A stretch of DNA of 39,918 bases from Basidiobolus ranarum (taxonomy: Eukaryota): NCBI GenBank assembly GCA_040143965.1, contig JASJQH010006916.1, positions 1-39,918 on the forward strand. The letters run 5' to 3'. Of this stretch, positions 3,112 to 38,957 are shown in pieces. The position numbers and the translations under genes were made by a program. The notes under the pieces were generated by a model. That model made no database searches. It was not told the DNA's origin and saw only the letters and a program-made list of their open reading frames with translations. Every line of letters starts with the position of its first letter. The first letter of the stretch is position 1.

Positions 3112-3283
3112 TCATATTGCGGTTAGTACAAATTGGAAGGTTTTTTTTTTGAGGATGAAATTTCACCTGGCAAATTTCTATTCTATGAATTTCGGCTTAA
3201 TCAATTTGGAATTTTTAGGTTAGTAGTTGCTACCTGTTTACCTACCACTTCACCCAGTCGAGAACGTCAAAGATAGAAGCACT

Positions 3284-4882
3284 ATGTTTGGCCTATGTCG
3301 ACTTACTAAACAGCTCAACCTCGGTAAAAGCCTATTATGCTACGAACATAATGCTACTATTATAGGAAAAAGGGGAGTACCCAAGGCTTTCTTTTCAAAC
3401 ACCAGTTTATTGGAAGCACGTAATGCTAGTATGAAGAAACCAAACGTTAGTACCTTGACAAAACATATGAAGCCGGACGGTATGACCGGTTACCAACGTA
3501 GAGCAAAGTTGTTACGTGAACAGAGTAAGAAAAAAAGTCCGGTGTCCAAAAAGACCAGAGGCTTCGTGCCAGTTAGATTCAAGCTTTTGTCGGTCGATTC
3601 GGACGTGAAAAGCCCTTCCACCAAAATTAAGAAAAATAAACCTGGTGAAGAGACAGTCAAAGACTTTGTAAAGAGGGCCAACTCTAGTCAGTTCGAGGAT
3701 TTCAAACTTAGAGAGGAAGTTTATGCTGCCTTGAAGAAAGGACCTTTGTCTCACGTTGGTGAGCATGTACGTCCTACTGAAATCCAAACTCTTGCTATAC
3801 CAGAGATTTTAAAGGGACGGAGCCAAGTCCTCTGTGCTGCCGAGACAGGATCTGGTAAAACTTTGGCTTATCTGTTACCACTTATTAATAAGTTGAAGGA
3901 GCAGGAGGCTGCCCATGAGAAACAAGTAAGTACTACAGCTGTGCGAAAGCTCAACAAACCGCGTGTAGTTATCTTAGTTCCTAGCAGAGAGCTTGTCAAC
4001 CAAGTTATAAACGTTGGTAAAAGCATGTGTCATCATGCCAAATTCCGTATTGCTGCCATGACCAATGCTATGACTAAGAAAAATGTACTCCGCGCTTTTG
4101 AGAGTCCCGTTGATGTTTTAGTTGCTACCCCGGCTAGTTTATTGCATTATTTCAATGATAAGGACATTTCATTTGCTGATACCTTTTCAGTGGTGATTGA
4201 CGAAGCTGACAGTATGTTCGATGGCGGATTCGGCGATGAAATCAAAGATATATTCAAGTATATCAAAAGATCGCGAGAGACCCAGAATTTAGATTGCCAA
4301 TTTATTGTGGTTTCGGCTACTCTTCCAAAGAAGGTGAATGAATCTCTGGATAAAATGTTCCCACAGCTCTTCAAGATCACTACACCATCCCTTCACAAAG
4401 CTCTTCCTAGACTCCGTCAAAACTTCGTGGATTTAGCTAGATTCCAAGGAAACAAGCAAATGGCAATATTGGATGTTTTGCGTGGAAATTCGCAAGATCG
4501 TACAATGATATTCACCAACACAAAACATGGCGCCAAGTTGCTTCACAACTTCTTGGACGAAAAGAACATCAAGACTTACTTGTTATCTGGTGACACCTCT
4601 GATGATGCTAGAGACGAGATGGTGAATTCTTTCAAAGACGGTACTCAAGAGTCCAGAATTATGGTATGCACTGACATAGCATCCCGTGGTCTGGACGTTA
4701 GCAATGTTCATCATGTCATTCTTTATGACTTCCCCAGTTCTGTTGTGGACTATTTGCATAGAGTTGGCAGAACTGCGCGTGCCGGTAGTAAGGGTAAAGC
4801 CACAAGCTTGGTTGCCCGCAAAAATCGGAATCTCGCTGATCGTATCCAACGGTCAATCCGAGATGGCACCGTTTTAAGTTAA
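3284..4882 (+). CDS. MRH4: Mitochondrial DEAD-box RNA helicase, Mrh4/DDX28-like (intronless)
   Basis: Q-motif (PTEIQ), AAETGSGKT, PSREL, DEAD, SAT, TDIASRGLD and HRVGRTARAG motifs. First ATG is 3284 (MFGLCRLTK...), a basic, acid-poor presequence-like N-terminus. AAETGSGKTLAY is typical of Mrh4/DDX28. Confidence 0.85.
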   Translation: MFGLCRLTKQLNLGKSLLCYEHNATIIGKRGVPKAFFSNTSLLEARNASMKKPNVSTLTKHMKPDGMTGYQRRAKLLREQSKKKSPVSKKTRGFVPVRFKLLSVDSDVKSPSTKIKKNKPGEETVKDFVKRANSSQFEDFKLREEVYAALKKGPLSHVGEHVRPTEIQTLAIPEILKGRSQVLCAAETGSGKTLAYLLPLINKLKEQEAAHEKQVSTTAVRKLNKPRVVILVPSRELVNQVINVGKSMCHHAKFRIAAMTNAMTKKNVLRAFESPVDVLVATPASLLHYFNDKDISFADTFSVVIDEADSMFDGGFGDEIKDIFKYIKRSRETQNLDCQFIVVSATLPKKVNESLDKMFPQLFKITTPSLHKALPRLRQNFVDLARFQGNKQMAILDVLRGNSQDRTMIFTNTKHGAKLLHNFLDEKNIKTYLLSGDTSDDARDEMVNSFKDGTQESRIMVCTDIASRGLDVSNVHHVILYDFPSSVVDYLHRVGRTARAGSKGKATSLVARKNRNLADRIQRSIRDGTVLS

Positions 4883-5151: not shown

Positions 5152-6712
5152 TCAGTTCTCTGCATTATTAGGCCAGAATACATTGCAGGTATTTTGGTAT
5201 ACTATCTCGGCAACATCTTGAGCGTCCCGGGCATGTAGGCCAGCAATGACTTCCAAAACTTGTCTACTCATTAGAGATTAGTAAAAGCTAATGTTCATGG
5301 ACTAAAGAGTTTGAAAAGAGCTACCTTAAAGTACAAGGTTCATTTCGACTTTTGACCATCAATCCCAATTCAAATCGCTCCTTCTTTTTACTTTCGAATA
5401 ACAGCTCTGGTTTGTCTTTGAGATATTTGTAACTGGCATGAGTTGGACGAATATCACACCAAGGTGCATCTACGAGTTTGAGGTATTGGATTAGTTATCT
5501 CGGTGTTGGTATGGTCTTTGAATAAGAAAAATGGCTATTTTACCAGTCTCAATCATCATCCGCTCGATAGGAATTGACGCTACAGTGTCAAGGTTCTCTT
5601 GAGTCTTTAGAGAACATCCATTGATTCCAATATAAAGATCCAAATCCAATATTTCCTTGGCTTCCTCGGGGGTTCCGGTGAAAGAGTGAACTACCCCTTG
5701 AGTGAATCGGTGGCGATTTTTTCTTATCATCTGTATGATTAGGTGAAGGATAGAAAACAGTATGTAGTGCTAATGGTATCAATATCATTCCATGTAAAAA
5801 AGGATATCGACAAAGTCACCATCCGTATTTCGATTGTGAAGGAACATCGGAAGTTTGGTAGTTTCCGCTAGTTGGAATTGCTTCTCAAAATATCTGTTAC
5901 AGTAAGCATTATTTATCACCGGAAGAATACTAAGCATTTACGTCAACATACTTGATTTGTGTCTCTTTGTCGCAAAAATGAAGTCTATCATAGTCTACAT
6001 GCATTCATACACGAACCATCAATAGAATGCATCATATATACGTTAGGTATTGTTTTCTTACCTAAACCACATTCACCGATGGCCACTACTTTGGTATGTT
6101 CGCTACGAGCAATTTCCAATAATTCCTCATAATAAGCTTCAGGTGAAGCTTTAATTGAGGTATCTTCAAACTCAGAACAACGGGTAGGATGACAGCCAAC
6201 AGTGGAAAATAAATAATCTACATAGAGAAGAAAGATGAATTTCGATAAGATTGCTTCCTGTTTTTAAATTATGGGCTGTTTGAAATAACCTTTGCTTCTG
6301 GCTAATTCGAGAGCTTCTTTACTTTCGGATAGAGAACCACCAGTAATCATCATACGTTCTACACCTACATCAAGTGCTCTTTTCAAGACATATTCCAAAT
6401 CGTCTATTTGTAATATCCAGGTGAGTATTAGTATTTTCTTTTTTTTGGGTGGGGGTTAACCCAAACCTATAGGTAAGATCACCTTCGTGGGCTATTTTGC
6501 CTCGATAGTCCCCTCGAAACATAGGGTCAGTCAAGTTAAGTCCAATATCTTGGTTTGAAAAGTAGTGCAAGCATGTTAATCCAATATTCACTAATAGGCC
6601 ATAAAAGTACAAAATGTTTTGACTACTTCTTACCAATGAGTTTCATACTGCTGGTAACGGAAGCGAGTGATAAGCACCTTCGATTAATGGTGTTTACCAG
6701 TGTACTTAACAT
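5152..6712 (-). CDS. TATDN1: TatD-family DNase (TATDN1-like), 9 exons
   Basis: Spliced motifs [84 protein letters not shown] and VKSRNEPC; stop TGA at 5154-5152. Start is either ATG 6646 or the upstream in-frame ATG 6712. Confidence 0.93.
5733..5807 (-). other. U12-type (minor spliceosome) AT-AC intron in TatD
   Basis: 5' end ATATCCTTTTTT, branch-like TCCTTCAC (5750-5743) about 11 nt from the terminal AC. Removal restores the frame (DFV-E-MIRKNR); retention gives an in-frame TGA. Confidence 0.85.
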
Positions 6713-7312
6713 GAAAAGTGTATTATCATTGCTAATAACTATTTCCACTTTTATTGTAACACCCATGCTAAATCTACCGACAAAATTTACTTCTGAAATA
6801 GGATAATTTAATTCATATAGTTTGAGCCATTATATACTCTGTATATTTCCTGGCGTTAACGACCAAACTATTTAATAATTGTGTGACAAAAGCCGAGTTT
6901 TATTGACGAAAAGAATTCAATCCAGTCATTATGTTGATGCAGAATTCCCAAAACCATTGATATCAGTTTAAGTACTGTATCTTGGTAGGGCTATGGCAAC
7001 TATCTTCAAATGCGATAGGTTCTTCACAGCCTAAATGCGAAGATGTTCCTCAAAATACTAGCCAATTCAGCACTACTCAATGATCAATTTATTGTTATAG
7101 TTCGCTCACATTAAGTTAATGTAGATCCCTTCGGAGTATGAAATCTCTTTAATGAGATGCACAGGCTAGCATAAAACCAGTAGGGTATCACCAATATTGC
7201 TTGAACGGGTTAATTTGATCAAGTTTCGAATATTTCCCATGAGGCACATGCACCATTTGCTTGAGCATTAGCATAAAATGAGATCGTGTCAGCGTTTAAT
7301 CGGCAATAGTCA

Positions 7313-9919
7313 ATGATGGTACATGAAGTATTGAAGGCTATTTCCGTGAATTCATTCCTCGAAACGATCCAATCTGCTCTTACTGATGCACTCTACTTCC
7401 TAACGAGAAACATAACCGCTGTTGGATTTATTCTTATATGTGCGCATATCTTACACTGGACACTCGCTCCCAAAATCCACTATTTCGGCGGAATTCATGG
7501 GCGACGGTTCATTTACGGTGTCTTTGTAGGGATATGGTTTTCGAGAACAGTAATGGACTACGGTCCAATCTATGATTTAGGTATTGATCTGTTGCTGCTG
7601 AACTTGTACTTCTGTTGGGTGCAATTTGCACCTATACTAGAAACTAGGTTTCCAAGATATTCAAACTTGATCTTGCATTCGTCCTCAAAGCAGGCCTTTC
7701 TTGGCTTTAGTTTGCCAGTCATTTTCGCATTTATCAGCATATGGTCGTTGATACTGGCACTACCAGTCAATATTGCGTGTACCTACGCGGTGCTTTTGTA
7801 TAGACTTGAGAGAACCAACAAATCACCCAAACGGAGGCAAGAAACATCACAACTGTTCCAATCTGTCCCAGAGATAGAAGTACCTTTCCTAGCAATGACA
7901 CTTTATATTCCCGTTGACTTTGTCAGTTCGTGGCTTGGAATTGTTACTGCAACGATGATATGGGCAACCCTATTGGTCAAGTGTAATATAATTCAATTTA
8001 CTGCCAATTTTCGACTGACATTCGCACCAGACATTTTAATCTCGATTAGAAATTTTCACGATAGAGATTCAGTATTCTCTCCCCTTGTAAACTTGGCACT
8101 TGCGGCTATAGTGAGATTCGTGTTACTACCACTTATTTCCTACAGCACGTCTTCGAACCTAGTGGGTATCACTGTATCTGTTGGCCTCTACATATATAAT
8201 TTTGGGAGCTTTCGGGAAAACCGTGGGGAATATTATTCTTACTTGAATAAGTTCGAACAGGTTTTCGAGTGGTCATCAGACTGGATTCAGTATGTGGAAC
8301 AGGTGGAGAGTTTACTCATAACGGCACAACATTTGCGGTGGTCCCATACAATTGGGGTGTCGATGGCGGTGTCATTTTTTCTATCGGTCATTATCAATAG
8401 GAATCCACTCGGGGGATTACTGACAGTTACTGCTATTGGGGCTATTCCATTGGTAAAGTACCTATTGGATACCATAACAGCCGGTGAAGAAGAGAGAAAT
8501 GAATACCGATTTTCCATGACACAACTGATTTCCTTTCTATACCAAACTGTCAGTGAAATACTCGATCGACAAAGCTCCATAAGAGACCAGCTGGCTCCAG
8601 TGATGTTTGGCATATTCGTCACAGGAATTCTGGAGATAGTGGTTGTTGGAACATGGTTCTCTATTCCGTGTAATATTGGAAAGATTCTGGGACTGATGCT
8701 AACTCTCCCAAAATTAATACTTGTACTATCTAACGTTCTTGTACTGGTAGTGGCACTTAAGAGTCTATATTTTCAGCCACTGGAGACCAGACTTAGGATG
8801 GTTATGGAACTGATAGAGCGACCTGATCGTGATGCAGAAAATACCTTGTACTGCCAGTGTACTAGGCATTCTGATCTATTCTTTATTCAAAGTATGCAGT
8901 GTCTAAGCGATGTCCTCACAATGGATAAGTGCTCGTATATATCAGTAGATTTTGATGGAGAGGATGGTGTTGACGTAGGCGGACTCAGACGTGAATGGAT
9001 GACAATGATTTCCAAAGAGCTGGTGCAACGAGGGCTTCTGAAACGCGAAGGCACATCATCACTTCGATTTTCATTAGATCACAAAGCGGATGGCTACTTT
9101 TGTATTGGAGTGTTATGTGGATTTTCTCTTATATATAGAGATACACCACTTGGACTCGATATTGCTGAACCCATACTCCGCTCGCTATGGGAGACACGTC
9201 ATGAAAAATACCTTGTATCCTTTTCGGACCTCAAGAAAGTAGAGCCAGAGGTGCAACGTAATGCCTTATCACTTTTGAATTATACCCGCGAGGAACTAGC
9301 TGCACTCTATCTCCACTTTGAGATTCATAGCGACGATGGTCATACCTTCAAAGAATGTGATCCGAATAACCCCGATGAATCTAAACAGATCACCAAGGAG
9401 AACCTTCCAGATTACTTCCGATTCCTTGCGCGAACATATCTCCGTGACAAAATTAGCTTACACATTGAACAATTTAAACTGGGATTTTCTCTTATCGTAC
9501 CATATGATATATATAAGCACATTTCATCTCACGACCTGTTCTGTATTCTTCGCGGGTCGGTAAAAATCGACACTGAAAGCTGGAAGAAACACACGAAATA
9601 CTCTTTTGAAAGTGACTTACAGCATGAACTGACGCAAAAGATGACAATCTGGCTATGGGAAATCATTAACGAGTATCCACAACAAGATAAAATTCGATTT
9701 CTTCGTTCAGTGACATCGTTAGAGACCCTACCGGCCAATGGGTTCAAATTACTTCAACCACCATTTAACATCTTGTTTACCTCTCAGCCCGCTCACTATA
9801 TTCCCAAAACTCACACTTGCTTTAATAGACTGGATCTTCCTCTATACAGATCTAAAGAGCAAATGAAAGAAAAATTGCAGATGCTATTGGATCATTCCGA
9901 TTCATTTTCTATTGCGTGA
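7313..9919 (+). CDS. HECT-domain E3 ubiquitin ligase with a multi-pass transmembrane N-terminal region (intronless, 868 aa)
   Basis: The C-terminal ~350 aa carry HECT hallmarks: FDGEDGVDVGGLRREW, FKLGF, LRSVTSL, catalytic PKTHTCFNRLDLPLY and terminal DSFSIA (-4 Phe). The N-terminal ~490 aa contain about 12-13 long hydrophobic segments. Confidence 0.85.
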   Translation: MMVHEVLKAISVNSFLETIQSALTDALYFLTRNITAVGFILICAHILHWTLAPKIHYFGGIHGRRFIYGVFVGIWFSRTVMDYGPIYDLGIDLLLLNLYFCWVQFAPILETRFPRYSNLILHSSSKQAFLGFSLPVIFAFISIWSLILALPVNIACTYAVLLYRLERTNKSPKRRQETSQLFQSVPEIEVPFLAMTLYIPVDFVSSWLGIVTATMIWATLLVKCNIIQFTANFRLTFAPDILISIRNFHDRDSVFSPLVNLALAAIVRFVLLPLISYSTSSNLVGITVSVGLYIYNFGSFRENRGEYYSYLNKFEQVFEWSSDWIQYVEQVESLLITAQHLRWSHTIGVSMAVSFFLSVIINRNPLGGLLTVTAIGAIPLVKYLLDTITAGEEERNEYRFSMTQLISFLYQTVSEILDRQSSIRDQLAPVMFGIFVTGILEIVVVGTWFSIPCNIGKILGLMLTLPKLILVLSNVLVLVVALKSLYFQPLETRLRMVMELIERPDRDAENTLYCQCTRHSDLFFIQSMQCLSDVLTMDKCSYISVDFDGEDGVDVGGLRREWMTMISKELVQRGLLKREGTSSLRFSLDHKADGYFCIGVLCGFSLIYRDTPLGLDIAEPILRSLWETRHEKYLVSFSDLKKVEPEVQRNALSLLNYTREELAALYLHFEIHSDDGHTFKECDPNNPDESKQITKENLPDYFRFLARTYLRDKISLHIEQFKLGFSLIVPYDIYKHISSHDLFCILRGSVKIDTESWKKHTKYSFESDLQHELTQKMTIWLWEIINEYPQQDKIRFLRSVTSLETLPANGFKLLQPPFNILFTSQPAHYIPKTHTCFNRLDLPLYRSKEQMKEKLQMLLDHSDSFSIA

Positions 9920-11535: not shown

Positions 11536-14499
11536 TTAATAGGCATCCTTCTCGTTGTCTACGAGAACAACGTCTTCTTTCATGGCCTTTCTCTTGATGA
11601 ATTTGTATATTTCCGAAGAGACAAGGAAAATAACAATCGAAACACCAACAATTCCCCACTCCCAGGTAAGATATTGATGCTTGAAGATATCAGTGTTAAC
11701 ATAAGGAATGTACAACACAGGAATCAATAGACCGCAACCGAGGAAAATGGACCAGAAAAGAGGTCTGTTGGAATAGTAGTTTCTAATGCCAGGAGGCAAC
11801 CATTGGGGTTCACGAAGACTACGGCAGTTATAAGCGTGTAAGAGGATCAACAAGGTAAGGCAAGAAAAGGCAGCGCCACGAGCACGGAATACTAAATCAC
11901 ACTCGGTGGAATAAGTAGAGTTGCAGTCACGTCCGAGATTTCCATCACCAAAACCAAACACCACAAGAACGAAGTTGATTAGAGCAAGTCCACCCATTAA
12001 AGTACCATAAACCAAGATATCCATAAAGATCTCTAGAGTGAAAATACCACTGATTGGTGGACGAGGAGGCATACGCATTGTCAAAGGATTTATGGGCTCT
12101 AAGCCTAAAGCCATAGCGGGAGGAGAACTGGTTACCATGTTCAAGAAAAGAATTTGAACGGGTGACATGGGATAAACTGTGAGACCACTGGAGTCAGCGA
12201 AACAAAGACCGATTACTAAGGCGATGATTTCGGAGACGTTACCAGACATCAAGTGAAGGACAAACTTCTGGATGTTGGCAAAGATACGACGACCTTCTTC
12301 GACAGCTCTAACGATAGTAGCAAAGTTGTCATCAGTTAAGACAATATCGGAAGCTTGTTTAGCGACATCAGAGCCGGCCATACCCATGGCAATACCAACG
12401 TTGGCAATCTTAAGACTAGGTGAGTCATTTACACCATCCCCTGTCATAGCAGCAATTCTCTTTCTTCTATGGAGAGCCTTGATCATCTTTACTTTGGTAT
12501 CAGGACTACAACGAGCAATAACATAAGGGAGTTCTTCTAAGGCGTCAACCTCACCATCAGTCAAAGCATCAAATTCAATTGCAGTCATGACCAACTTGGG
12601 TCCTTCTTTACCAGGGCTGTAATTAGGTGGAATGATAGAAACTTCTCTAGCGATAGCAGCGGCAGTGGCAGGGTGATCACCAGTAAGCATGTGAACTCTG
12701 ATACCAGCACGGTGGCATTCTTCGACACTGTCCTTGGATTCAGCACGAGGAGGATCATAGATACCAACCAAACCGACAAAGACCATATCACGTTCAACTT
12801 GTTCACGAGTCCAATAATCTGGATGGGTTTCGGAGAGTTGGGGTTCAATATAACGATATGCAAGGGATAATACACGAAGTCCGTTGGAAGCCATTAGTTC
12901 AACTTGATGACTGATCATTTGATGCAATTGGTCGGGCTTCTCGATGGTCTCCTCTCTGTCACCAATTCTTATACGTGAGCAAGTCTCGATGACCCGCTCA
13001 GTAGCACCCTTCATATAAGCGATGTGTTTGCCGGATTTTTCTTCGGTGTAAACTACACTCATTCTCTTGACGGTGGAATCAAATGGATATTCCGCATGAA
13101 GGGTGAACTCTACGTGGTTGTCTTCAGATTCTTTGGTCAGCTCAGGTCTTCCGCGGCCAACTTTAGTGGCAAATACTTGGAGAGCAGTTTCAGTTGGGTC
13201 ACCAACACCCATCCATTCACCGGTAGTTTTATCATGCTTAAGAATTGCCATATTACACAATGAGGAAACCTCAACCATTCTTCTAAGGGGGGCACTCATA
13301 CTTTCGAAACTGACAGTTTCTTTATAAGAATCCGAGCTTCCAGATAAGGCCAATTCATTAGCAGAAACATCACCAAGACGAATTACTTGTCCTTCGGGTA
13401 CAAAGCCAGCGCCAGATACATGATAGAAACCATCCCCTGGAACGTAGGCTTTGGTCAAAACCATCTTGGATTGAGTAAGAGTACCGGTCTTATCGGAGCA
13501 AATGTTGGTAACGGAGCCCAGAGCCTCAAGAGCATTAAGTTGTCTGATAATAGCCTTATTCTTGGCCATGGATCTGACTCCAGCAGCCATAGTGAGAGTT
13601 ACAACAGCAATCAAACCTTCGGGAATTACAGCAATACCTAGAGAAATAGCATAGATAGCTACCTCAGAACTGATCTTGAATTTGTTTACAGCAAACACCA
13701 CAATAGCCAGAATGATAGCGACAAAAAATAGGATATAGGCCATCTTGTCCATACTTTTTTGGAGTTTGGTTTTACTATCACCACTACTCTCGATAAGACT
13801 CTTGGCGATTTTACCAATCTCACTTTGCATTCCGGTGGCAATAACAATTCCACGACCACGACCCTTAGTTACGGTGGTGCTAGAATATACCAGATTGATA
13901 CGATCACCAATAGGTTCATCCGGATTCTTCAAGGTTTCCAGGGTCTTGGGGACTGGAAGAGATTCACCAGTAAGCAAAGCCTCATCAACCTCAAGGTTGA
14001 ATTGTTCGCTCAGACGAGCATCGGCACCAATGACATCACCATTCTCAAACACCAGAATATCGCCGGGAACAAGTTCGTTGGTAGAAATGTGAGCCAAGTT
14101 GCCATCACGCATAACGCGTGAAGTGGGAGAAGCCATTTTACGAAGTGAGTCCATGGTTTTCTCGGCACGGTACTCTTGGAAGAAACCGATGGTAGCGTTT
14201 GTTACAATAACAACACCGATCACAGCACCCTCTACCCAATCTTTGGCAGAAAAGGCAATGGCCATGGCGATTACGAGAATGATCGTAAGTGCGTTGGCAA
14301 TTTGTCTGAAAAGCACTTTCCAAGGACTAACACCTCCGTTTCCGGACATTTGGTTAAGACCATATTTCTGAAGGCGGTCAGTTACTTGCTGGGAGCTGAG
14401 GCCATCCTCTAGATTGGAATCTAATCTCTGGGCAACATCTTGGATATCGTAGATATGATACGGCGTAGGTTCTTCGGGAACAGGAGTAGGTTTGGTCAT
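11536..14499 (-). CDS. ENA1: Na+/K+-exporting P-type ATPase, type IID (ENA family), intronless
   Basis: TGES, IPEGL, CSDKTGTLTQ, KGATE, MLTGDH and MTGDGVNDSPSLK motifs, plus ENA-type NMVTSSPPAMALG and FFQEYRAEKTMDSL. Confidence 0.92.
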   Translation of the reverse strand: MTKPTPVPEEPTPYHIYDIQDVAQRLDSNLEDGLSSQQVTDRLQKYGLNQMSGNGGVSPWKVLFRQIANALTIILVIAMAIAFSAKDWVEGAVIGVVIVTNATIGFFQEYRAEKTMDSLRKMASPTSRVMRDGNLAHISTNELVPGDILVFENGDVIGADARLSEQFNLEVDEALLTGESLPVPKTLETLKNPDEPIGDRINLVYSSTTVTKGRGRGIVIATGMQSEIGKIAKSLIESSGDSKTKLQKSMDKMAYILFFVAIILAIVVFAVNKFKISSEVAIYAISLGIAVIPEGLIAVVTLTMAAGVRSMAKNKAIIRQLNALEALGSVTNICSDKTGTLTQSKMVLTKAYVPGDGFYHVSGAGFVPEGQVIRLGDVSANELALSGSSDSYKETVSFESMSAPLRRMVEVSSLCNMAILKHDKTTGEWMGVGDPTETALQVFATKVGRGRPELTKESEDNHVEFTLHAEYPFDSTVKRMSVVYTEEKSGKHIAYMKGATERVIETCSRIRIGDREETIEKPDQLHQMISHQVELMASNGLRVLSLAYRYIEPQLSETHPDYWTREQVERDMVFVGLVGIYDPPRAESKDSVEECHRAGIRVHMLTGDHPATAAAIAREVSIIPPNYSPGKEGPKLVMTAIEFDALTDGEVDALEELPYVIARCSPDTKVKMIKALHRRKRIAAMTGDGVNDSPSLKIANVGIAMGMAGSDVAKQASDIVLTDDNFATIVRAVEEGRRIFANIQKFVLHLMSGNVSEIIALVIGLCFADSSGLTVYPMSPVQILFLNMVTSSPPAMALGLEPINPLTMRMPPRPPISGIFTLEIFMDILVYGTLMGGLALINFVLVVFGFGDGNLGRDCNSTYSTECDLVFRARGAAFSCLTLLILLHAYNCRSLREPQWLPPGIRNYYSNRPLFWSIFLGCGLLIPVLYIPYVNTDIFKHQYLTWEWGIVGVSIVIFLVSSEIYKFIKRKAMKEDVVLVDNEKDAY

Positions 14500-15020
14500 A
14501 CTACTCGGAATATATATATAGGAAGTTCTTGAAGCTCAACAAAATGGATATTTGTAAGGAGGAAAGGCTAAAATATATTAGTAAGCTTCAGTAATGAATA
14601 TGAAGTTGGAACTTTGTTGGCTATCAACTACTCCAGACCAAGGCTTTTATAGTTCTTCGAAACTTTAATTATCTACAATCAAATAAAAGCAATATGAATA
14701 AGAATAGAATGTGATTACCCCACTGAATCAACGCAACATATTTCTAATTTAAATATACCCACATCCATTTAAATATATAATAATAAATATAAACAAATTA
14801 GGTGGCCTTAAATTTCTATCCGTGTTTCGAATTCCCAATAGTCTCCATATGGAAAGAATATTCCATCGTAGAACAATCACAGGTGCATGTTCTATCTCTG
14901 AACGCTGATTGAGTTAGAAGACAACATTGCAACTTGTTGAGTTCCCCTCGTATCCTAAAGTTGCTCTTGATTCTAGAATCTTTGCTCTTGATTATTCTCG
15001 TAGTTTGATAAGTATTTTCG

Positions 15021-35300: not shown

Positions 35301-37415
35301 ATTGAAAGTTCTTCTGTAGTTCATCTTGCCGTCAACCTGGTCTTATAGCTTCTCAAGAATGCTACCATGCCACCAATGTAAACCTCCCACACAGGTCTCT
35401 GTTTTTAATTAAGGAAGGGCTAATTTGGTTTTGGAATATACCTGCCTGCGCATTATTGGTTGTTGTATTCACACTAACATGGGAATATCAAGTGAGGGAC
35501 TTTAACCTGCTTAGCAAATAGGGTTTGTAATAAGATTTCACGCGATAGCTAAAACCTGCTTATTAGGTGTGAACACTTACTTTAATCTGATACTAATAAA
35601 TATTCTTGGTATCATAGTTCTATATAATTATAATATAGTACTAATACATACGTGCGAAGGCTAAACAGTTTAAGCTCTAAATGAAGTGAAACACTAGTTC
35701 ACAGGTACAGGTTAGCATATGTCAATGTTGGTTATACTGCTGGTAATGTGTGAGGTCGTGTGCGGGTACGTAAACCTTAATGTCATGGATTATACTTGAT
35801 TTTGCTGACTGATTTCTTGCTCAGTATTACGATCTTACATAGAATTGGCTGTACGACCATCGGCAAGACATTTTTCATGTCCGAAACACAGAGGAGTTTG
35901 GGTAGCTGCATCGATTATCTTATCTTTCAAGCATCGTTATGAGATCAGCTGTAGGTGGAATGCAAGTTCAGATAGTGTATAAAAGGCTTGTCGAGTACAA
36001 TATCATCTGTAAAATATACTCTCACACTGTAGTGAGTAATAGCTTGGCCTGAGCTAATTATCTGGATAGTGAATAAAGACGTACTACTCTCAGTTACGTA
36101 TTTGAATGTTTACTTAAGAGCCTAAGTATGTTCTGTGATTCACATTGCTTTTGTTGAGCTATTAGTTGAGTCGCCTCTTAACCCTGGCTCCTATATCTGA
36201 GACTTTCAGCAATTAAACTCTATTCAATAGTAGTATTTAGTAATTAGTAAGAGCAAGCTTATATTTCAGTAAATACAGAAATATGATACAGTAAGCTAGA
36301 GCAGGTTATAGTACAAGTTCATGAATATTGCACTATCTCGATTGAATTATATTTATCTACTGAGTTCGGATGGGTTTGAATTACACATAGGGTAAGTTGA
36401 GGATGATATCGGGAAGATTGAGTGCTCCTTTCTTTAGTTGCTTTTCTAAACTACCGACATGATGAGTAATTTGAGTGAGTACACGCTAGTCCTAAACAAG
36501 TATGATTGCCTGTGTTCCATTTGGATATTTTCTATCATTTGACCAATGATAAGGTTGACGGAAAGTTGCGCTCCAAATTGCTTACCATACAACGGTGCTG
36601 TTTTCCCTCCTTCAATTCTGATGTTTTCCACCGATGGTTTCTCTGTTAATCGCTTTGAGCGTATTGAAATTGTTGTTTTTGCAAGTAACCGTGGGTATCA
36701 ACTACACTATCGAATCCTCCAAGGTTGTCGCACTCTGTTACTCTCTAATTTGATCTACAAATGAATTTGGTGCTACCAAGCACTAGGAATATGCATAAAC
36801 CAACCCTCCAAATTAGTCATATAATACTATGCAAAGTATTGTCCATATACAGGTATAACCATCTGATGAACATAGAAGAGAGTTCATGATACTTGACCAG
36901 AAACCGACATACTCATCAAGTATTGCCTATATTAAGATGAATATTCGTTCTTTCAGTGTCATGGGTTTAGCCAGATATCCGCTATAGAAAAGCATTACAA
37001 GTAGGGTTTAGATTCTGAAAAGAGAGTTCTAAGTAAAAACTGGATCTCTGAAAAAAGTGGACCAAGTGCATGGAGGACGGAGTAATGTATGATTACCGGT
37101 ATTATAATTGGTTCTTTGTTAGCATATGATACCAAGCGAAGTTAAAGTTGTATGCTGTAGCAAGAAATGAAACATAACCTAGTGGCTTTGACTTTGAGTC
37201 CTCCAATCATCATTCGGTTAACGTACAATGCCGAAGGTTCTTCTCTTCCGTCTACCAACCGAATGGCCTGATTTGATACAGATATAAATGCATGAATAGC
37301 AGTTCCTCGCGAGTCATGCACATTTTAATAAAGCTATTAAAGCATTAGTTTAAATCAACAACATTGAAGTGATGTCCAAGTAAGGTTTATTTCTAAAATA
37401 TCCTTTCTACAAGCC

Positions 37416-38957
37416 ATGTCTTTCGAAACCATACCTATTTCTACAGTGAATAAATCTACTTTGGATATCCAAGTTATAAGTGTATCGTCTGGTGAATCAA
37501 ATGAACCAGACCCTCCACGTACCATGGGCGTTTTCACAGGTGCCTCAATGGTAGTAGGATCGATGGTAGGGTCAGGAATACTTTCAACTCCTGCGTTTAT
37601 ACTAAGTTTGGTTGGATCACCAGGAGCTGCACTTTTGCTCTGGGTTCTTGGTGCTATAATTACTTTAGGAGGGGCTTTGGCCTATGTTGAGATGGGAGTA
37701 ATGTGGCCACAAAATGGAGGCACACAACATTATTTAGCACACGCATACCCTAAACCAAAGACTATGCTATCATATACGTTTATTTGGTGCACTCTATTTG
37801 CAGACCAGCCGGCCGCTATTGCAGCTAATACTGCTGTATTCGGAAAGTTTGTCTTGTTCGCAATATACGGTAGTCCTGTTGAACATACAGCCGCGCCAAA
37901 CGGATGGCTATCCAGGTCCATTGGATTATTCGCTATTACGTTATTGTTAGTTTTAAACTCGTTTTCAGTTAAGGCAGCTCAACGGTTTCACACTTCTCTA
38001 ACAACAGTAAAGATTCTGATATTGTTAGTGATTTGTTTATCGGGTTTGCTGGCACTTGCGGGTGTTATTAAAGTTCCAGAAGAAGCAAGACAAAACTGGT
38101 CTCATCCATTTGCCAATACCAACATGAATGTTGGATCTACTGCATCGGCTTTGCAGAAAGTTTTTTGGGGATACGGTGGGTGGAGTACCTTATGCTACAG
38201 CCTGGGAGAGTTACGAGATCCTAGCAAGAATATGCCCAGAGCAACTACGTTGGGGGTGGGCCTTACGTCGATTCTATATATCACCGCAAATATTGGGTTT
38301 TTTGCTGTGGTACCACTGGCGCTTGCGTTGGAATCCAAAGAAATTTTAGCTGCCGAGTTTACGTACATAGTCTTTGGTAATTATGCTGGAAGAATTGTTT
38401 TACCAGTATTGATTGCCATATCAATACTTGGCTCCCTCAGCGCTCAAATATACACTGGAGCACGGATTACAGTTAGTGCAGCAAAAAGTCGTTTTATTCC
38501 ATGTTCACAGCGCATATCTCTTTTGCATCCGGTATATGGGACTCCGGTAGCTGCCTTATTCTTTAATTGTTCAATGATTTTGCTCTATCTACTTGCTTCA
38601 CCGCCTGGAGATACTTTTAATTTCCTTACTGGCTTTGTTCAATATCCCAATCGATTCTTCTATGGAATGTCCGTACTGGGGTGTTTACTACTAAGGCGCT
38701 ACCTACCTCATCACCCTAGAAGAACGTTTAGAGCAAGTAACGTGTTGATCGTTTCTTTTGTTATAACAAGCATATTTTTGGTTGTCTTTCCCTTCTTCCC
38801 TCCTGCAATATCCGTGACAAATTCTTTATACCCATACTGGTTATCACCAGTCCTGGGACTTTTAGTTTTAGTTGTTAGTATAATCATGTGGTACGCAAGA
38901 ATGGTTTGGTGGCCAAGGAAAACTCTAGTCGATAGTAAAGAAAGTATTGGCAGTTGA
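37416..38957 (+). CDS. APC-superfamily L-amino-acid permease (LAT/Mup1-like), intronless
   Basis: GSMVGSGILSTP, GALAYVEMG...GG...YL, WGYGGW...GELRDPSKNMPR and GTPVAAL; about 12 hydrophobic segments. Confidence 0.88.
   Translation: MSFETIPISTVNKSTLDIQVISVSSGESNEPDPPRTMGVFTGASMVVGSMVGSGILSTPAFILSLVGSPGAALLLWVLGAIITLGGALAYVEMGVMWPQNGGTQHYLAHAYPKPKTMLSYTFIWCTLFADQPAAIAANTAVFGKFVLFAIYGSPVEHTAAPNGWLSRSIGLFAITLLLVLNSFSVKAAQRFHTSLTTVKILILLVICLSGLLALAGVIKVPEEARQNWSHPFANTNMNVGSTASALQKVFWGYGGWSTLCYSLGELRDPSKNMPRATTLGVGLTSILYITANIGFFAVVPLALALESKEILAAEFTYIVFGNYAGRIVLPVLIAISILGSLSAQIYTGARITVSAAKSRFIPCSQRISLLHPVYGTPVAALFFNCSMILLYLLASPPGDTFNFLTGFVQYPNRFFYGMSVLGCLLLRRYLPHHPRRTFRASNVLIVSFVITSIFLVVFPFFPPAISVTNSLYPYWLSPVLGLLVLVVSIIMWYARMVWWPRKTLVDSKESIGS

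Follow-up and report, generated by a model that had tools for sequence, protein, structure and literature searches.

The Basidiobolus ranarum contig analysed here in its entirety (39,918 bases, 39% G+C, no N; referred to as the window) carries on its minus strand, from 6646 to 5152, a gene for a TatD deoxyribonuclease (DNase) of the TATDN1 type. The sixth intron of this gene is very probably a U12-type AT-AC intron, spliced so that position 5808 is joined to position 5732. The observed splice signals, protein spacing, positional homology and split annotation carry this assignment. Intron 6 runs from 5807 to 5733, is 75 nucleotides (nt) long and in phase 1, and is the sole non-GT-AG intron of the gene, the other seven of the eight being GT-AG. 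In the deposited annotation the gene is broken at this very intron into two records (P0121 and P0001), which are to be read, from their sequences, as the halves of a single TATDN1 orthologue of 307 amino acids.

Intron 6 starts with ATATCCTTTTTT and ends in ...CATAC. The U12-type consensus used for comparison consists of a 5′ splice site /[AG]TATCCTT, a branch box resembling TCCTTAAC, and a distance of ~10-15 nt between the branch site and the 3′ end. The 5′ box of intron 6, ATATCCTT (5807-5800), agrees with this consensus at all eight positions, and the branch box, TCCTTCAC (5750-5743), at seven of eight, with a C at position 6. The adenosine of the branch box is at 5744, 11 nt from the last intron base at 5733. 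Because the 5′ box, the branch box (with its one departure), the branch distance and the AT-AC termini, which yield a conserved product in frame, all follow the AT-AC subtype, intron 6 may be regarded as a regular member of it. The 75-nt intron with these boxes and its AC terminus on the minus strand, as proposed in an initial annotation made from the sequence, is therefore confirmed. Read-through of intron 6 gives D-I-L-F-Y-M-E and then a TGA at 5787-5785; a stop on retention had likewise been anticipated, and the deposited P0121 ends at this codon.

The probability that the 5′ motif and, 8-18 nt before the 3′ end, a TCCTTNAY box coincide at a given fixed site was estimated from the k-mer frequencies of the window itself and amounts to ~1.6e-7. 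Counting both strands, the window contains five copies of the motif [AG]TATCCTT, and the four sites other than that of intron 6 lie within long open reading frames (ORFs) with Pfam matches, namely those of HECT, Sel1, a dual-specificity phosphatase and an amino-acid permease. A relaxed scan of the window for U12-type motifs returned 20 motif combinations. The only short one besides intron 6 that starts GTATCCT, at 14950-15003 (+), consists of GTATCCTAAA followed by TCTTGAT 12 nt before TAG, and was rejected as an intron, having stops in all three frames on both sides. The same scan returned a 44-nt combination of ATATCTTTTC, TCTTTAC and TAG at 32648-32605 (-).

The choice of splice was examined by measuring the spacing between two anchors of the protein, the metal-binding LH-R strand and GVVHSF, in TatD relatives. 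Among the first 120 relatives, 11 lack one of the anchors. Of the other 109, 107 have a spacing of 19 residues, and the last two have spacings of 20 and 24. A set of 237 proteins gave 19 residues in 196 and an odd spacing in 20, with the upstream anchor absent in 21, and in the final set the spacing is 19 residues in 270 of 334 proteins. The AT-AC splice (5807 to 5733) restores exactly 19 codons and is alone in doing so among GT-AG, GC-AG and AT-AC pairs, while an overlapping 81-nt GT-AG interval (GTCGAT...CAG, 5811 to 5731), which is also in frame and drops V-E, gives 17. When 1,493 in-frame, stop-free splice pairs were enumerated and narrowed to those with known dinucleotides, only 5807/5733 displayed both a known 5′ motif and the 19-residue spacing. 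The junction 5808/5732 reads ...D-F-V-E-M-I-R-K-N..., or ...GDFVEMIRKN... in the full product, which agrees with the earlier claim that only the AT-AC splice yields this sequence. It aligns without a gap to EFLDIMKRN, a TATDN1 motif already quoted in the initial annotation and now seen in bat and macaque TATDN1. The residues of Cunninghamella at the site are also those predicted by the AT-AC splice.

A hidden Markov model (HMM) was built from 142 full-length relatives out of the 237 collected, and the candidate products were scored with it. The 307-residue AT-AC product scored 504.6 bits (E 2.6e-155), as compared to 494.7 bits for the 81-nt GT-AG product and 488.3 bits for a 42-nt GT-AG option (5811 to 5770). 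A further pair with AT-AG termini (5805 to 5731), in which D replaces E, scored 504.8 bits. The protein evidence counts against the GT-AG splices, yet it does not discriminate between E and D at the junction.

The position of the intron was compared across orthologues by scanning metagenome contigs, which gave 80 related loci. The coding sequence is continuous through the site, with no intron, in 71 of them and stops at a contig edge in two, whereas seven are interrupted there (L002, L036, L047, L054, L058, L063 and L067). In each of the seven, the sole 19-codon solution among GT-AG, GC-AG and AT-AC pairs begins 22 nt past the upstream anchor in phase 1, and intron 6 shares this nucleotide and phase with all seven. 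With respect to this conserved position, the 81-nt GT-AG alternative starts 4 nt upstream and the AT-AG pair 2 nt downstream, both in phase 0. The seven metagenome introns are all GT-AG and 35-90 nt long, and none begins with [AG]TATCC. The loci are eukaryotic, range in G+C from 0.21 to 0.68 and have non-fungal proteins as their nearest named relatives. Since seven eukaryotic loci of non-fungal affinity have an intron there, the position is evidently old and widely shared, with different intron types in different lineages. One of them, L002, was considered as a close relative showing recent conversion and was rejected, as its nearest named relatives are non-fungal at 44-51% identity over the whole protein.

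Two observations on related sequences may be mentioned at this point. Teleost TATDN1 isoform models (P0198, P0202 and P0230) are aberrant and break right after EFI, at the codon of the fungal intron, which suggests that vertebrates may also have an intron at this site. TatD homologues of the metagenome loci L019, L044 and L049, and also L053 and L059, contain in-frame stops at otherwise conserved positions, and in the first three the stop falls at one shared codon (HSRST*GDF). The sources of these five loci probably have reassigned stop codons.

Both deposited B. ranarum proteins match the window at 100% identity. P0121 ('TatD DNase', 153 amino acids) starts at Met13 of the 307-residue model and thus misses the 13-nt first exon, uses introns 2-5, and then continues into intron 6 as far as the TGA. 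P0001 ('hypothetical protein K7432_001704', 147 amino acids) begins with MIRKNR at an ATG (5730-5728) two bases past intron 6, which is Met161 of the full protein wrongly taken as a start codon, and uses introns 7 and 8. One gene would stand in two records because gene predictors model only GT/GC-AG introns; the annotation enters intron 6, runs to the TGA and restarts at the next ATG. A probable mis-call by gene predictors had been foreseen, and this split in the public record bears it out. Among the proteins of the collection searched, there is no full-length identical one derived from a transcript. PF01026 is precomputed for both deposited halves, and the whole gene is assigned, on this basis and on the HMM score of the spliced product, to the TatD/TATDN1 family of metal-dependent DNases, with a predicted nuclease activity.

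The nine-exon model itself was obtained by tblastn with three mucoromycete orthologues followed by a translation check. Exons 1-5 are at 6646-6634, 6548-6483, 6403-6290, 6217-6062 and 5994-5952, and exons 6-9 at 5893-5808, 5732-5544, 5469-5325 and 5263-5152, the stop TGA being at 5154-5152. The first exon of 13 nt, found in the same way, encodes M-K-L-I plus one base, an orthologue starting ...KLIDIG; intron 1 (6633-6549, 85 nt, GT-AG) joins it to the second exon and restores the conserved N-terminus ...KLIDIGLNL. The length of the product falls within that of its TatD relatives (~290-330 amino acids). The seven GT-AG introns are 58-85 nt long, with the donors GTAAGA, GTGATC, GTTATT, GTAAGA, GTATGT, GTAAAA and GTAGCT, and the base before the donor is G in six of them and A in one. 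Phase 1 is shared by intron 6 and five of the other seven introns.

A break at the same codon is seen in protein models of other early-diverging fungi. When a truncated Diversispora model was used as the query, its closest protein matches likewise proved to be cut short or irregular at this codon. The model of Diversispora epigaea reads ...DFIDIL and continues as FVNF..., that of Funneliformis geosporum reads ...DFMDIL followed by QSF, and that of Entrophospora sp. SA101 ends in ...DFMDIL; Jimgerdemannia flammicorona has ...DFVDIL followed by SMCV..., and Dimargaris xerosporica ...DFIHIL followed by PFPL.... In F. mosseae, DILQ is joined to HRHRF with an 18-residue spacing, in Diversispora eburnea GECGL jumps to VVHS, and Dimargaris cristalligena and Apophysomyces display an internal deletion at the site. 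Translated in phase 1, N|ATATCCTT reads [D/H]-I-L. Of the 270 normally spaced models, five contain D-I-L and none H-I-L, and full-length fungal orthologues show E/N/T/Q/K-M/L/I at these positions. The residue after D-I-L differs in each genus (F, Q, stop, S and P). Read-through of an ordinary GT intron would give V in phase 0, or G, C, S or R in phase 1. The genera with these tripeptides are members of Glomeromycota, of the Endogonales within Mucoromycota, and of Kickxellomycota, and the simplest reading of these protein models is probably that of one conserved U12-type intron starting with AT. No orthologue model of B. meristosporus was found among the matches of the protein searches.

Going further, the balance of the evidence leans towards an ancient AT-AC U12-type intron of TATDN1 that would have survived in Basidiobolomycota, Glomeromycota, Endogonales and Kickxellomycota, with a GT-AG intron at the same position elsewhere, and that would break nearly every such gene model. 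In the NCBI taxonomy, B. ranarum is placed in Basidiobolomycota, an early-diverging fungal phylum, and the main text of Larue & Roy 2023 (PMC10639083) assigns the genus Basidiobolus to Zoopagomycota.

The capacity of this genus for minor splicing is documented in the literature. Larue & Roy 2023 count 249 minor introns in B. meristosporus (0.554%), a density not exceeded in any other fungus examined there, and 205 in Rhizophagus irregularis, in which they also report all four minor small nuclear RNAs (snRNAs) and a phase bias of 1 > 2 > 0; no minor intron was found in Ascomycota or Basidiomycota (PMC10639083). Olthof et al. 2024 (PMC11347168) give 237 minor introns and a putative, divergent U4atac for B. 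meristosporus, and report genes for U11, U12 and U6atac from species of mucoromycotes and zoopagomycotes. The premise of the initial annotation, that the minor spliceosome is absent from Dikarya and kept in some early-diverging fungi, is thus in accordance with these published accounts, which include the genus. An Rfam scan of the 39,918-base window gave no match, and hence no snRNA gene within these 40 kb. TATDN1 does not appear in the main text of either PMC10639083 or PMC11347168. Among the article texts searched, none pairs TATDN1 with 'U12-type' or 'minor intron'.

P120/NOP2, CMP and SCN4A are reportedly among the genes in which classical AT-AC introns of the U12 type were first recognised. 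Those of animals and plants share with intron 6 the 5′ box ATATCCTT, a TCCTTAAC-like box ~10-15 nt from the end, the terminal AC and the lack of a clear polypyrimidine tract. Intron 6 differs from them in being very short (75 nt), in having C at position 6 of the branch box, and in its fungal host. Fungal minor-intron motifs are stated to follow those of animals and plants in the main text of PMC10639083. The minor introns of B. meristosporus and R. irregularis, as presented in the main texts of PMC10639083 and PMC11347168, resemble intron 6 in genus or fungal grade, in the 5′ and branch motifs and in phase 1. However, the censuses described there score annotated introns, and intron 6 is unannotated since the gene model breaks at it.

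The pattern at this site is also similar to the minor-to-major conversion at conserved positions described in the main text of PMC10639083, as the intron appears U12-type here and plain GT-AG without U12 motifs in the seven metagenome loci; these loci are not close relatives, and nothing marks intron 6 as being in transition. The 'hybrid' and 'minor-like' intron classes presented in PMC11347168 resemble the idea of a dual signal. Intron 6 has a minor-type 5′ site and branch box and would fall in the plain 'minor' class.

The proposed removal of intron 6 by the minor spliceosome is drawn by analogy with characterised U12-type introns. U11 snRNA, and later U6atac snRNA, would pair with ATATCCTT at 5807-5800, and U12 with TCCTTCAC at 5750-5743, leaving adenosine 5744 as the putative branch point. 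The 3′ cut would then fall after the AC at 5733, 11 nt past the branch adenosine, and the joining of 5808 to 5732 would give the 307-residue enzyme.

Several points weigh against the AT-AC assignment and its wider conservation. Position 6 of the branch box carries C, not the A/G of the TCCTTAAC consensus. An AG at 5731, 13 nt from the branch adenosine, offers a second 3′ site which, with the donor at 5807, would shift the frame, and some unproductive splicing between the two is possible. The protein data do not separate E from D at the junction, the AT-AG product scoring 504.8 bits as against 504.6. The gene's ordinary donors show degeneracy (GTGATC, GTTATT and GTAGCT), so that a weak GTCGAT donor at 5811 is conceivable. 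The competence of B. ranarum for minor splicing is taken from a published congener, B. meristosporus. Protein models are the source of the proposed conservation in other fungi, and the 'DILQ' of Funneliformis could be true coding sequence, with the intron four codons later.

The alternative that survives best, although it is improbable, is that both spliceosomes serve the site, as a dual U2/U12 or twintron-like intron with isoforms differing by V-E, or as an intermediate of minor-to-major conversion. The elements cited in the initial annotation for this idea are all present, i.e. a GT donor at 5811, CTAAT at 5742-5738, a CAG ending at 5731 and an in-frame 81-nt interval that deletes V-E. The dinucleotides of either splice are in place, and each product keeps the frame. 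Moreover, U2-type introns are found at the same position in seven eukaryotic loci, which suggests that a change of type occurred somewhere in evolution. Impaired minor splicing is known to bring cryptic U2-type sites close to U12-type introns into use, and such use of a nearby site would be in line with this alternative. As a control, each intron was searched for GT-AG pairs that are stop-free, in frame and no more than 12 nt away from either border. Of the seven ordinary introns, I4, I5 and I8 have one or two such pairs each, and intron 6 has one. Since three of seven ordinary introns have one too, the GT-AG alternative is uninformative. Its donor is also poor, lies 4 nt off the conserved position in another phase, and leads to a product that lacks two conserved residues and scores 9.9 bits below that of the AT-AC splice. 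The overlapping interval is accordingly judged coincidental and appears to be nothing special, and the reading as a dual, twintron-like or transitional site is not supported; low-level use of the GT-AG pair is conceivable. Genuine use of the site by both spliceosomes seems very doubtful.

Even less probable is that the functional intron is the 81-nt interval itself, a U2-type GT-AG intron from 5811 to 5731, with the inner U12-like motifs as a relic or a coincidence. Its GT and AG exist, it is in frame and stop-free, and CTAAT precedes its AG; three insect relatives (P0159, P0165 and P0167) have spacings of 16-17 residues. In these insects, however, the residues are lost elsewhere, further downstream, and the 17-residue spacing occurs in none of the 109 relatives of the first set with both anchors. 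The alternative donor (ttt|GTCGAT) has T at -1, where all seven real donors of the gene have G or A, and C at +3, which is seen in none of the seven. The CTAAT adenosine is placed just 8 nt from the AG. The lower HMM score and the shift from the conserved position, both noted above, also argue against this intron, and it leaves the coincidence of U12 signals (1.6e-7) unexplained.

The AT-AG pair from 5805 to 5731 (75 nt, phase 0, product ...DFVDMIRKN...) is a very remote alternative, despite having the same length and 19-residue spacing as intron 6, a marginally higher HMM score, and at the junction D, the commonest residue there among relatives. Such an intron would start with ATCCTTTT, which fits no known class of 5′ splice site, and AT-AG termini are rare. 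It would further be in phase 0, while the homologous intron is in phase 1 and two bases upstream in all seven interrupted loci. Because of the splice motif and this positional homology, the AT-AC pair 5807 to 5733 is preferred over it.

It is hardly credible that the deposited annotation is right and the gene is split or decaying, with the interval kept and two half-proteins or none made, since beyond the public statement of a 153-residue and a 147-residue protein, the two halves together make up one TatD fold and neither is known to stand alone among relatives of ~300 residues, all nine exons are intact with introns 2-5, 7 and 8 common to the model and the records, U12 splice signals are present in full at the point of the break, and a like break occurs in the models of five other genera.

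With intron 6 read as a U12-type AT-AC intron, the known picture of minor introns is unchanged, the genus having already been reported as rich in them. What is new is the corrected gene model, the position held in common with U2-type introns elsewhere, and a lead on an AT-AC intron that may break TATDN1 models across early-diverging phyla. In the public annotation, the 153-residue and 147-residue B. ranarum records would merge into one TATDN1 orthologue of 307 residues. AT-AC introns appear to defeat gene predictors, and models from at least five further genera of early-diverging fungi fail in a like manner at this codon. Minor-intron censuses count annotated introns; therefore, such cases are invisible to them and their counts are lower bounds. 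If the intron is indeed ancient and shared, censuses built on annotation would give systematically low counts of AT-AC introns for early-diverging fungi, and the TATDN1 locus would be a ready-made marker for intron-type conversion. The putative U12-type intron here and the U2-type introns at the identical position elsewhere offer useful material for studies of such conversion.

The TatD gene is surrounded by ordinary housekeeping genes. Its neighbours are, in order, a DEAD-box helicase (3227-4882, +), a HECT ubiquitin ligase (7310-9919, +), a P-type cation ATPase (11536-14535, -) and an amino-acid permease (37368-38957, +), and ORFs for Sel1-repeat, ankyrin, dual-specificity phosphatase and DeoC-type aldolase proteins lie at other places in the window. 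No spliceosomal gene was found among ten long ORFs of the window by Pfam, only ordinary neighbours. Among the fungal relatives collected, four models of 1,324-1,436 amino acids from Mortierella and Haplosporangium (P0204, P0209, P0216 and P0226) have a ubiquitin-hydrolase (PF00443, PF13423) joined to TatD (PF01026), and these may be either true fusions or merged neighbour genes.

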